A stretch of 24,000 nucleotides of DNA from Serratia sp. UGAL515B_01 (GCF_033095805.1 NZ_CP109901.1:3011766-3035765); one strand, 5' to 3'. Counted from the stretch's first letter, positions 2,010-21,269 are shown. The notes: generated from the sequence alone by a model not told the origin. Numbers and translations are program-made.

Positions 2010-3131
2010 TTATTCGTCGAAGAACCAATAGCCTTGATTGACCAACGTGGTTAACTCAGCAATAAACCGTGGATTTTGGCATGCATTGCCCAACTCTTTT
2101 TTACCGATAACAGCATAACGACACAGGCAATCCGCCGCTACAGGATCGTGAATTTCCAACCGTTCGCTATTGATGAAAAAGCCACCACCAACTTGCAGCA
2201 CTTTCAGACCATTCAGCCGTGTCAGCACTTCGCCATTCATCAAAGCATCGGCAATCTCGTGCTGTTCAAAAGGGGGGCGCACTGGGGCAATGTCTAACTC
2301 GTGGCGCGGTGTTGTGACAAAGCAACCAAGCCAATTTTTAAAATCCTCTGGCTGATTAATCATGTCGATCATCATCGTACGTAAACGCTCGAGCTCATCA
2401 TCTTCAACTCGCCCCGGATGTTCGCGACAGGTAAGATCGGCATCGCTATAATGCTCACTACCGAGATCGTTTTCCAACACATAGTCAGCGAAGCTACTGA
2501 TCAAGTCCCTACTATTAGGCCCACGGAAACCTACAGAGTAGTTAAGCGCAGTTTCGTGAGTCAAACCGTCGTGTGGAAACCCCGGTGGGATATATAAAAT
2601 ATCACCCGGTTCAAGGTCTTCATCAATGATCGGTGTAAACGGTTCAACGTGTAACAACGCAGGATGTGGGCAAAACTGCTTGAGCGGCAGTTTGTCTCCA
2701 ACGCGCCAACGGCGACGCCCCATTCCCTGTATGATGAACACATCGTATTGATCAATATGTGGCCCCACTCCCCCACCAGGGACGGAAAAAGAGACCATTA
2801 GGTCATCCAGACGCCAATCTGGCAGCACTCGAAATGGGCGCACCAGCGCAGCAGAGGGAGTGTGCCAATGGTTAACAGCCTGGGCGAGCAGCGACCACCC
2901 TGTTTCCCCCAGATTATCAAAATGCTCAAACGGCCCATTGCTGGCATGCCACTGACCATTTCTCTGGCTTACCAGACGGCTATCCACCTCGGCTTCCATT
3001 GCCAGCCCCGCCAATTCGTCCGGTGTGATAGGATCGACGAAATCAGGGAAAGCATTCTTTAAAATAACGGGACGCTTTTGCCAGTATCTTTCTAAAAATT
3101 CAGGCCAATTAAGGTCAAGTCGATAAGACAT
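2010..3131 (-). CDS. roxA: Ribosomal protein uL16 arginine hydroxylase (JmjC/cupin-4 oxygenase, YcfD/RoxA)
   Basis: 373 aa, colinear with E. coli YcfD as I recall it (LNWPEFLERYWQKRPV, DELAGLAMEAEVDSRLV, the metal-binding GPHIDQYDVFIIQG, and YIPPGFPHDG). The length is the same. Confidence 0.9.
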   Translation of the reverse strand: MSYRLDLNWPEFLERYWQKRPVILKNAFPDFVDPITPDELAGLAMEAEVDSRLVSQRNGQWHASNGPFEHFDNLGETGWSLLAQAVNHWHTPSAALVRPFRVLPDWRLDDLMVSFSVPGGGVGPHIDQYDVFIIQGMGRRRWRVGDKLPLKQFCPHPALLHVEPFTPIIDEDLEPGDILYIPPGFPHDGLTHETALNYSVGFRGPNSRDLISSFADYVLENDLGSEHYSDADLTCREHPGRVEDDELERLRTMMIDMINQPEDFKNWLGCFVTTPRHELDIAPVRPPFEQHEIADALMNGEVLTRLNGLKVLQVGGGFFINSERLEIHDPVAADCLCRYAVIGKKELGNACQNPRFIAELTTLVNQGYWFFDE

Positions 3132-3407
3132 ACTTTCACACCATTGAGAAGATAAATGGGCTTGATTATAGGTAGGCTAACGCCCACACCGCCTTGTCAT
3201 TGGTCAAAAGTTTGTTTGCACAGTTACGGATTAGTGGTTCACATCCCGATGGAATGGGTTTTATTTTTGCGCCATTCGCAGGCGATCGTTTGAGCACAAA
3301 GCAAGAAGTGCCCCTAAAAACCTGACATCGCCGTTGTCGGGTTTGAACAAGGTGCACGCCTTCCACCCTGCGGTTTTTGGGGCTGTGATAGCAGGCATCA
3401 TCGGCAA

Positions 3408-18938: not shown

Positions 18939-18973
18939 CCCGGTCAATTCAGTTTTTACCGGGCTTTTACTTT
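18939..18973. terminator. Weak bidirectional hairpin between the polymerase-like pseudogene and the convergent immunity-like ORF
   Basis: CCCGGT (18939-18944) pairs with ACCGGG (18958-18963) across a 13-nt loop. cttttacttt follows on the + strand and ttatggctttt on the - strand. Confidence 0.35.
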
Positions 18974-19322
18974 AAAGTTGTTGATAACGCTCATCTTGTA
19001 AAATAAGTGGTTGTATTTCTTCCTCCCACATACGCTTCTGATATGATTGTCCCTCCGTTGGCTCTGTTCGGTTATGAATACAGTCCTTAATCGCTTTTAC
19101 AGCCAAATTAAACTCTTCTTTACTCAACTCACTAAAACTTATCTGATCCAAGGGTAGGTACATCATTATCTTTTCGTGTATATCCGGATGATTCGCCTGC
19201 AATGCCTCATCGAACAATGTTTCTAAAGCATTAGAGGCCGTTCGGTTAAGTCCTACCGTAAGACCCCTTTCACCATAGTTGTTATTATATGCCTTGCACC
19301 CTATATCAAAAAAAGAACCCAT
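18972..19322 (-). CDS. Small acidic protein, immunity/antitoxin-like partner of the upstream 402-aa ORF
   Basis: The ATG at 19322 lies 2 nt after the upstream TGA (19327-19325). It is preceded by GAGGTG embedded in the last codons of the upstream gene. An alternative GTG at 19328 would overlap the stop. The product is 116-118 aa, rich in Glu/Asp, with predicted helical character and no family I can name. Confidence 0.6.
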   Translation of the reverse strand: MGSFFDIGCKAYNNNYGERGLTVGLNRTASNALETLFDEALQANHPDIHEKIMMYLPLDQISFSELSKEEFNLAVKAIKDCIHNRTEPTEGQSYQKRMWEEEIQPLILQDERYQQL

Positions 19323-19324
19323 AA

Positions 19325-20533
19325 TCACCTCATAATAATAAATTTTTCTTGTTGATTTTTAGGTAATGTTTTTATGTAATCCATAAACACTTTCTGGTTA
19401 GATGGTGTCAATACACTAAAATCAACAGGAACTATGTCCGCTTTCCCTAAATGGTCAAGGATTTGTTTTTGACCAATTGGGATTTCCCCATCAGTTCTCG
19501 TCACAGTCATGTTTTTCTCAAAGAACTTGTTTAGTCCATCAACTTCTTTTTGGGATAAGTTCTTTGTTGTATACATAAAATCAACAGTTTTTCCTGCATT
19601 AGGACCACTACTTATAATAAAATCAGCAGTTTTCCCCCCAGTATCAGGTGCTCTTTCTAGGGGCCCTAGCTTATTTTCCAGTCTTGCCGCAGCCGCGGCT
19701 TCTGCTGGATTGTACTTCCCATTGCCATTTATATCTGGTGTATTCAAGCGTTTTTGGCTTTCCAGAGGAGTGGAGTTTATTTTTGTTTCATTAATCCCAT
19801 CGGCATTCTTGGTGAGTGATAGCTTTGAACCCATGCGCCTTGCACCAAGTAGGGCACTAGCAGCCACTGCAGCACCTGCCGTTTTCTCATTCAGTACCTG
19901 ATCGAACCCTTTAGCAGCATCACCCCCCAGCTTTTTAGCAGTATCTGCAAACATTTCAGGGTTCTGGTTATAAATGCCTCCAGCAGCCAGTAAGCGACCT
20001 GCATTAGCGCTGTTTATCGTTCTCAACGGCGCTTGTGCTTGTACTGGGCTTTCTCCGCGCCTGAATTGATTCATTGGTGTTGGACGCGGTTTTCCGTTTG
20101 TTGTCCGGTAGTCTCGCCTAAGGACTGACTGATCGTATTGAGCAATAATCTTTTTTGTCCCCTCAAAACGAAAAGCCATAGGGTCAGTGCAAACCAGCTT
20201 ACCGCCTTCATTGATATAAAACAGGTTTGCCGGGCCGTAGATATCACTCAACATCACCACATCACCGGAAAACACCATTTTTTCCAGTTTCTCTTTTTCA
20301 CGTAGGCCGCGTGAAGCAGTGCGGTGCTGAACAGTACGATCTTCACGCATATTGATGATATAGCGACCCGTACCATAACCCTCATCAAACACATACTCTC
20401 GACAAATCCGTGACCAAGCCCTATGAGCACTGATTATGCGTTCAAACTCTTCAGGGGCAAGATTATCGTTCGGTAGATAGTACAAATAGATACCGGGCAA
20501 ACTCAGGCTCACTGTTACCTCCGTGTTAAGCAT
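19325..20533 (-). CDS. Three-part protein of unknown function (globular N-domain, Ala/Gly/Asn-rich linker, about 100-aa C-terminal toxin-like module)
   Basis: 402-aa intact ORF. An in-frame stop at 20581-20579 limits any upstream extension, and no SD precedes the ATG. The C-terminal module (EAAAAARLENKLG...TADFIISSGPNAGKTVDFMYTTK...) has an E / D / D...K layout reminiscent of PD-(D/E)xK-type toxin domains (weak). It is coupled to the downstream small ORF. Confidence 0.7.
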   Translation of the reverse strand: MLNTEVTVSLSLPGIYLYYLPNDNLAPEEFERIISAHRAWSRICREYVFDEGYGTGRYIINMREDRTVQHRTASRGLREKEKLEKMVFSGDVVMLSDIYGPANLFYINEGGKLVCTDPMAFRFEGTKKIIAQYDQSVLRRDYRTTNGKPRPTPMNQFRRGESPVQAQAPLRTINSANAGRLLAAGGIYNQNPEMFADTAKKLGGDAAKGFDQVLNEKTAGAAVAASALLGARRMGSKLSLTKNADGINETKINSTPLESQKRLNTPDINGNGKYNPAEAAAAARLENKLGPLERAPDTGGKTADFIISSGPNAGKTVDFMYTTKNLSQKEVDGLNKFFEKNMTVTRTDGEIPIGQKQILDHLGKADIVPVDFSVLTPSNQKVFMDYIKTLPKNQQEKFIIMR

Positions 20534-20634
20534 TCGTAAAATGGACTTAACACTAGCACACTCAGAAAGCCTGGAAAATCATAAAACATCGTTAGGGTAT
20601 CAGGTAGTAACACGCTGTCATTAGTCCTGCTGCG

Positions 20635-20882: not shown

Positions 20883-21269
20883 TTATATATTACCAATCAT
20901 CTGTGATATCTCATGTATTCTTTTTTCAGTCATGTCAGAAATGCAGTTGTTTATTGCAAATGAATGAGTTCGGCTGTTTTCTTCTATATGAAAAGCGTAA
21001 ACATCACATGTGGAATTCATGTATTCAATCCATTTTGATTGTGACATCTTAACTTTTTCCAGTAATTTATTTCCTAAAACAATATCCGCAGAATAGCTTT
21101 TGTTTATCTCACTAATATATAACTCGTACTCTTTTTTTAGCTTTAAACTAACCTCATCTTTTTTTTGATAAGAACATACATAAGCCTGATTGGAATCAGT
21201 AATGTTATTACAATCGTCTTGAGCGTAAACCCCAAAGGAAAAAAAGCATATAATTATAAATTTCTTCAT
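20883..21269 (-). CDS. Secreted DUF1311 / LprI-like (lysozyme-inhibitor family) protein
   Basis: Signal peptide MKKFIIICFFSFGVYA/QDD. The four-Cys pattern and the helix signature (C..I.....AYVC ... LKKEYELYISEI ... QSKWIEYMNSTC ... NNCISDMTEKRIHEI) are typical of DUF1311. The SD GGAGAG lies 7 nt upstream. The gene is very AT-rich. Confidence 0.75.
   Translation of the reverse strand: MKKFIIICFFSFGVYAQDDCNNITDSNQAYVCSYQKKDEVSLKLKKEYELYISEINKSYSADIVLGNKLLEKVKMSQSKWIEYMNSTCDVYAFHIEENSRTHSFAINNCISDMTEKRIHEISQMIGNI

Follow-up and report, generated by a model that had tools for sequence, protein, structure and literature searches.

The window analysed here, a 24,000-nucleotide stretch of the Serratia sp. 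UGAL515B_01 chromosome (GCF_033095805.1, NZ_CP109901.1:3011766-3035765), carries on its minus strand a toxin gene followed by an immunity gene. The toxin is very probably a polymorphic toxin of three parts, in which a transfer RNA nuclease (tRNase) from contact-dependent growth inhibition (CDI) systems was joined, together with its immunity gene, to a DUF8093 domain and linker at codons 233-240, an abrupt fall in G+C content at codon 303 lying inside the imported DNA. Residue and codon numbers follow the 402-aa open reading frame (ORF) from ATG 20533 (19325-20533, minus strand). The features of the locus, with positions counted from the first letter of the window, were as follows.

19325-20512, minus strand: toxin gene, 395 aa from GTG 20512, made up of DUF8093, linker and a tRNase of the type found in the C-terminal toxin region of CdiA (CdiA-CT); the database gene call is also 395 aa
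20039-20512, minus strand: DUF8093 (PF26362), an N-terminal globular domain with a presumed delivery or loading role, residues 8 to about 165
19835-20032, minus strand: conserved helical pre-toxin linker, RLLAAGG...LNEKTAG...ALLGARR, residues 168-233, its end being the swap point of the family
19812-19838, minus strand: recombination junction (RMGSKLSL), codons 233-240, between the blastn breakpoints
19328-19813, minus strand: PD-(D/E)XK tRNase domain (CdiA_C_tRNase), residues 241-402
19700-19702, 19622-19624, 19580-19582 and 19451-19453, minus strand: predicted catalytic residues E278, D304, D318 and H361, respectively
19622-19635, minus strand: G+C step, codons 300-304, with the catalytic helix (E278) on one side and the first catalytic strand (D304) on the other
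18972-19322, minus strand: immunity gene, 116 aa (MGSFFDIG...), with ATG 19322 as the most likely start
about 18953-19811, minus strand: imported cassette of tRNase, immunity gene and a few bases beyond its stop, from blastn against loci of Dickeya fangzhongdai (L003), Pseudomonas graminis (L004), Erwinia rhapontici (L005) and the same genus (L019)

The splice was located by breakpoints in DNA homology. The scaffold DNA was 97.7% identical to Logan contig L007 and 91.5% identical to an island gene of Yersinia kristensenii (L006). This homology began 5′ of the start codon, at 20624 and 20756, respectively, and stopped at 19839, codon 232, in blastn alignments with both. Homology to cdiA-CT/cdiI DNA started at 19810-19817 (codons 239-242) in three of the four best relatives, namely D. 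fangzhongdai (82.8% identity), P. graminis (82.1%) and a full-length CdiA of 3465 aa from the same genus (76.3%). In E. rhapontici (76.0%), it started at 19784, codon 250. The homology was collinear through the immunity ORF and ended at 18953-18977, either side of the stop at 18972. These breakpoints bear out the conclusion of the original prediction, made from the sequence alone, that a C-terminal toxin and immunity cassette had been recombined onto an N-terminal scaffold. That prediction had placed the junction at codon 303, and the check set beforehand was an identity breakpoint near codon 300; none was there, and the blastn breakpoints at codons 232 and 241 ruled out a junction at codon 303. 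About 28 nt at 19812-19841 (...RRMGSKLSLT) matched, base by base, neither the scaffold genes nor the cdiA-CT relatives, and may be the remnant of an unsampled donor.

The protein was split in a database search into residues 1 to about 232 and residues from about 235 to 402. The former were 54-96% identical to Yersinia PF26362 proteins with many different C-termini, and the latter were 79-88% identical to the tip regions at the C-terminus of CdiA proteins of the "VENN motif pre-toxin" kind (Pectobacterium, Dickeya, P. graminis, Serratia and Erwinia). The PF26362 call on the toxin was taken from the precomputed Pfam annotation of the database, which lists PF26362 and PF18664. Among the 100 best database matches, only the protein of this genome combined the two domains; the locus is an ordinary polymorphic toxin with a domain combination that is unusual on this count. 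The Yersinia DUF8093 proteins, annotated as "HNH endonuclease" or "polymorphic toxin type 46", are likewise encoded in two-gene cassettes of toxin and immunity gene at scattered chromosomal or island sites. They share the N-domain and linker (54-96% identity) and end in HNH/Endonuclease_NS_2, Ntox46, colicin D, deaminase, WHH, Tle1 or RHS.

Sequence comparison also indicates that the junction coincides with two modular boundaries, the swap point of DUF8093 proteins and the join between entry domain and nuclease in CdiA. In the DUF8093 family, conservation collapses beyond ...ALLGARR (from residue 220-230 on). In CdiA proteins, the same nuclease is preceded by at least three unrelated post-VENN regions, and the switch always falls at KN(A/S/T)DGI. 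The region between VENN and the nuclease is the site of CdiA-CT entry domains. The KN(A/S/T)DGI switch indicates a probable second recombination hotspot inside CdiA-CTs, where CdiA proteins would join different cytoplasm-entry domains to the nuclease. The captured part is the nuclease half of a CdiA-CT only, without its entry domain. The locus records a clean transfer of a CDI tRNase and its immunity gene, minus the entry domain, onto a small uncharacterised scaffold.

The nearest relatives of the cassette are orphan modules of D. fangzhongdai, P. graminis, E. rhapontici and Pectobacterium, with 76-83% identity in DNA and 79-88% in the toxin over residues 235-402. The 2-nt gap between the toxin and immunity genes and the internal G+C profile are identical in the window and in these modules. 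The modules lie downstream of full-length cdiA genes and have VENN and one of the at least three entry domains upstream of the nuclease, whereas the window gene has the DUF8093 scaffold and linker in their place. In P. graminis and E. rhapontici, several orphan CT/immunity modules stand in an array at the locus.

The tRNase domain was assigned from two profile and structure matches. PF18664 was matched over residues 276-401 (E value, 8.5e-44; 149 bits against a gathering cut-off of 26.5), covering the full profile from 1 to 116. The toxin of Burkholderia pseudomallei E479 (5j4a_A) was matched over residues 235-401 (E value, 1.2e-20). The active site of the E479 toxin consists of E204, D229, D243 and H275 (PMC9086364), which correspond in the alignment to E278, D304, D318 and H361 of the window protein, respectively. 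D366 aligns with a conserved aspartate five residues past the histidine and may or may not correspond to the published D285. Homology thus shows the toxin to be a predicted PD-(D/E)XK nuclease with a Glu/Asp/Asp/His site of the E479 type, including the unusual histidine in place of the PD-(D/E)XK lysine. The E479 toxin cleaves tRNA at the T-loop in a Mg-dependent manner, and its immunity protein blocks the active site (PMC9086364); by analogy, the window toxin would cleave tRNA in target cells with the same metal dependence. The window toxin is not a CdiA: it is 395-402 aa long, contains no VENN motif, and PF18664 was its sole match in the local Pfam search. Compared with the CdiA of E479, it has no two-partner secretion (TPS) domain, filamentous haemagglutinin (FHA) repeats, VENN or ELYN motif, or entry domain. 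Searches for a known defence system or NCBI family returned no PADLOC and no NCBIfam matches.

The start of the toxin gene is almost certainly GTG 20512 (codon 8), giving a predicted product of 395 aa, because homologues begin with MSLSLPG at codon 8 of the 402-aa ORF, all 59 family representatives of DUF8093 align from their own residue 2, and a GGAGG motif precedes this GTG by 5 nt.

The 116-aa ORF downstream of the toxin gene was predicted to encode its immunity protein. Its ATG lies 2 nt past the TGA of the toxin gene, with an AGGTGA Shine-Dalgarno sequence overlapping the toxin stop, and the two genes would be translationally coupled. In all four cassette relatives, the homologous toxin gene is likewise followed by a homologue of this ORF, and the 2-nt gap is identical in three of them (L003, L004 and L005). 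The best database homologues were 80-81% identical, within a family of 22 database proteins, all "hypothetical" and without a Pfam domain, from Pectobacterium, Dickeya, P. graminis, Serratia, Kosakonia and Pantoea. No sequence match to the protein was found in Pfam, NCBIfam, PADLOC or the PDB, the Pfam and PDB phmmer results being noise. An AlphaFold2 (AF2) model built from the 22-protein family was obtained with a mean predicted local distance difference test score (pLDDT) of 89.7 and a predicted template modelling (TM) score of 0.82. The top fold match in the PDB was 5j4a_B, the CdiI of E479 (probability, 1.00; TM scores, 0.61/0.67; 116 aligned columns). The next PDB match had a TM score of 0.26, and all others were at or below 0.32. 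The nearest solved relatives of the toxin and of the 116-aa ORF are therefore the two chains of one complex, 5J4A. The pair shares with E479 a homologous toxin domain, the immunity fold and the order of toxin then immunity gene; in sequence, no similarity between the window immunity protein and CdiI-E479 was detectable. On the modelled structure, the 116-aa ORF is an immunity protein with the predicted CdiI-E479 fold, and it would block the active site of the toxin as its counterpart does.

The N-terminal domain was 96% identical in protein sequence to P0002, 90% to a Y. kristensenii protein and 66% to another PF26362 protein. Its AF2 model was a mixed alpha/beta fold with a pLDDT of 75 (84-95 over most of residues 10-150), and no fold match with an E value below 1 was found when DUF8093 was compared with the PDB. 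An Hcp-like N-domain was ruled out by the lack of both a PF05638 match and a PDB match to the AF2 model; PF05638 is matched by the Hcp-ET protein P0087, unlike the toxin. Among 1.84 billion proteins, the family comprised 59 representatives at 50% identity, with the domain always N-terminal. A match of the N-domain to P0155, a 1788-aa repeat protein, was apparently spurious and was rejected. The C-terminal partners of DUF8093 include HNH/Endonuclease_NS_2, Ntox46, WHH, colicin DNase, colicin D and deaminase domains, and further RHS repeats with DUF6531 (P0144) and a Tle1-like phospholipase (P0066). A literature search found no paper mentioning DUF8093.

The linker, for which AF2 predicted four helices, was 49% identical to that of Hcp-ET P0087 over residues 168-264 in both proteins (BLASTP), with conservation over about residues 168-233. 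Hcp-ET proteins are described as specialised type VI effectors of Enterobacteriaceae in the passages that cite their report (Ma et al., 2017, as cited in PMC11148199 and PMC8262886). The window protein and Hcp-ET agree in layout and lengths: the N-domain spans about 165 aa in each and is joined through the conserved linker to a nuclease that varies, with an immunity gene next. They differ in that the window N-domain is not an Hcp and has no sequence similarity to it. Since the linker aligns at the same residue numbers, DUF8093 would take the place and the length of Hcp. The linker may be a shared pre-toxin or translocation element used with two carrier domains. The RHS and Tle1 fusions and the Hcp-ET linker are typical of type VI effectors.

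The genome carries three TssC/Hcp loci, about 2.6 Mb from the toxin gene, and separate CDI systems; matches to PT-VENN were confined to other loci of the genome. At six DUF8093 loci examined, no adjoining type VI genes were found, and the DUF8093 pairs are isolated two-gene cassettes, some beside integrase remnants. Export through one of the three type VI systems has, by analogy with the fusion partners, something short of an even chance of being correct. The narrower proposal that DUF8093 is an unrecognised type VI loading domain, which replaces Hcp in an Hcp-ET layout of the same length and linker, is tentative and stands at the lower end of that estimate. If it is true, a type VI machine encoded elsewhere would fire small orphan cassettes of toxin and immunity gene, including CDI-derived nucleases without entry domains. 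The DUF8093 scaffold is thus a tractable candidate for an effector-loading domain and a possible model for the movement of toxins between secretion systems.

The main functional rival to type VI delivery is a role in island addiction, in which the pair would be an intracellular toxin-antitoxin module (addiction or abortive infection) that stabilises a decayed island near mutS and is not exported. The pair stands alone as two genes in an island that carries an integrase, away from any secretion genes, which would suit such a module, as would the similar isolation of other DUF8093 pairs and an N-domain without a recognisable delivery fold. We nevertheless consider it unlikely, as PADLOC returned no matches, the layout is that of a polymorphic toxin (conserved N-terminus and linker, hypervariable C-termini and matched immunity genes), the RHS, Tle1 and Hcp-ET linker partners point to type VI effectors, and CdiA tips are where this toxin domain otherwise occurs.

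The G+C content of the two genes was examined by a maximum likelihood scan for a single change point across toxin and immunity genes, from 20533 to 18972 on the minus strand. The best change point fell at codons 300-304 (positions 19622-19635), with a G+C content of 0.477 before and 0.358 after it, and the sliding G+C profile was consistent with this position. The original prediction had counted G+C by hand in 60-nt lines, and a recount agreed within two points: 0.533, 0.483, 0.283, 0.333, 0.417, 0.383 and 0.183 for the lines at 19681, 19621, 19561, 19501, 19441, 19381 and 19321 of the toxin gene, and 0.317 and 0.467 for two lines in the immunity ORF. Its break at about 19620-19627, its assignment of A303 as the first residue of ADFIISSG and its observation that low G+C runs on through the immunity ORF were likewise confirmed, the last by the line counts and the profile. 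Its statement that the drop coincides exactly with the beginning of the C-terminal module failed, as the starting points are residue 276 for the PF18664 match, residue 235 for the 5J4A alignment and codon 241 for the DNA cassette.

The log-likelihood ratio (LLR) of the change point was 11.05, and none of 500 base shuffles reached it (maximum, 10.55). When 4000 segments of 1562 nt were drawn at random from the same chromosome, 7.75% had a change point as large or larger. The step is therefore genuine against shuffled sequence, yet not rare against the real heterogeneity of the genome. When codon positions were separated, positions 1 and 2 alone gave a significant step (GC1+2, 0.51 to 0.33; p = 0.001), whereas the fall at position 3 (GC3, 0.42 to 0.26 after codon 291 or so) was not significant (LLR, 4.6; p = 0.063).

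The cause of the step was sought in the amino acid sequence. The G+C content expected from the amino acids under the codon usage of the genome (573 long ORFs) fell from 0.519 in codons 241-300 to 0.420 in codons 301-402, while the observed values fell from 0.472 to 0.324; about two thirds of the step thus comes from amino acid composition. The segment before the step is rich in Ala, Gly and Pro (NPAEAAAAARLENKLGPLERAPDTGG), including the AEAAAAARLE helix and GPLERAPDTGG, and the beta-sheet core after it is rich in Lys, Asn, Ile and Phe. The contrast between the first 60 or so residues of the nuclease and its core would shift codon positions 1 and 2, to which the small, non-significant drop at position 3 would add. 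The step also falls within one catalytic fold, with E278 upstream and D304 on the step itself.

The same pattern was found in relatives. The 60-nt G+C profiles of the D. fangzhongdai, P. graminis and E. rhapontici modules were collinear with that of the window, with values of 0.45-0.64 ahead of the step and 0.23-0.48 beyond it. In all three, the GC1+2 change point lay exactly 99 codons from the stop, equivalent to codon 303 here. Their GC3 change points lay 183-308 codons from the stop, that of Dickeya close to VENN, and are real signatures of horizontal transfer in those hosts. The step in the window belongs to the interior of the cassette and was inherited with it; it is largely driven by amino acids and is not a recombination scar. 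It gives no independent support for a modular swap, for which it had been offered, because it lies inside the cassette, is shared by three genera and is driven by composition.

At the junction itself, about 190 nt (about 65 codons) upstream of the step, composition did not change. The G+C content was 0.477 in the scaffold and 0.472 in codons 241-300, and GC3 was 0.42 in the scaffold (0.37 in the linker) and 0.38 in codons 241-300. The genome has 48.7% G+C and a GC3 of 0.52 ± 0.07 in long genes. Scaffold and cassette are alike in being AT-leaning island DNA, with GC3 of about 0.42 and about 0.26-0.38, respectively, which is why composition gives no sign of the junction.

Another explanation of the step is that the cassette is an ancient mosaic, in which the core (codons 301-402) and the immunity gene came ancestrally from a source of lower G+C than codons 241-300. 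The fall in GC3 from 0.38 to 0.26 across the step and the difference in DNA identity to relatives (0.6-0.8 upstream, 0.84-0.93 downstream) are in its favour. The GC3 change is not significant, however, and the identity changes gradually, which is consistent with stronger constraint on the core. In addition, the distant E479 toxin is collinear over residues 235-401, E278 is part of the same PD-(D/E)XK core, and amino acid composition alone predicts a drop of 0.10, so we regard such a mosaic as quite improbable, more so than the addiction role. That the step marks the scar where a toxin of about 100 aa and its immunity gene met a resident protein has hardly any probability left: the step is real against shuffles, low G+C continues through the immunity gene and abrupt G+C falls are known at CDI loci (PMC4725963), but homology breaks at codons 232 and 241 and not at 303, the step splits the catalytic domain between E278 and D304, it recurs in cdiA-CT modules of three other genera, and it comes mainly from codon positions 1 and 2.

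We therefore favour an antibacterial toxin composed of a DUF8093 domain, a helical linker ending at ...ALLGARR (residue 233) and an E479-type PD-(D/E)XK tRNase, with a CdiI-like immunity gene downstream. The tRNase and immunity gene (about 18953-19811) would have been taken from the CDI toxin pool, and export would use DUF8093 as the loading domain. Several observations weigh against this explanation. GC3 dips somewhat after codon 291, and the identity of the cassette to its relatives is lower in codons 241-300 than in the core. The 28 nt or so at the junction resemble neither parent class, and the nearest relatives of the cassette reach only 76-83% DNA identity, so that the actual donor is unsampled. 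As to delivery, none of the examined DUF8093 genes lies beside type VI genes, the N-domain matches no known fold, and the proposed route draws on fusion partners and linker homology.

It is common to take a G+C step within a polymorphic-toxin gene for the transfer junction, and here that reading is wrong by about 65 codons. CDI loci are known for an abrupt fall in G+C over the CT and immunity region (PMC4725963); given this hallmark, the earlier reasoning was sensible, but it pointed to the wrong site here. Calling a junction first requires profiles resolved by codon position and breakpoints in homology.

Flanked by mutS on one side and an ABC-transporter operon on the other, a decayed integrative island contains the toxin and immunity pair, with a C-terminal integrase fragment adjoining the pair. 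A scan of the locus for promoters and terminators gave none above shuffle expectation. A paralogue (P0032) is encoded in the same genome at G000:C1:945079, a 447-aa protein of DUF8093 and an Endonuclease_NS_2 toxin. Its linker is different and longer, and a YgfB-like gene lies alongside. The paralogue locus (L002) is as follows.

G000:C1:943579-947109, ORF 1507-2850: toxin gene of the paralogue
G000:C1:943579-947109, ORF 2847-3188: 113-aa immunity gene

DUF8093 was found in none of 15 other species of the genus, several of which have the tRNase on CdiA. A search for related loci with a 15-sequence alignment showed the domain in several Yersinia species and in Erwinia typographi. From this distribution, the scaffold itself looks horizontally acquired. 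The nearest relatives of the scaffold are in Yersinia, which suggests acquisition across genera. Of the 16 species of the genus compared, only the window genome carries DUF8093, and at 4.26 Mb it is also the smallest, the rest being 4.6-6.2 Mb.

A further gene at 20883-21269 on the minus strand encodes a 128-aa secreted protein resembling LprI/DUF1311 lysozyme inhibitors (PF07007; E value, 9.7e-9), with about 29% G+C. It abuts the integrase remnant and forms a second compositional island, apart from the toxin cassette.

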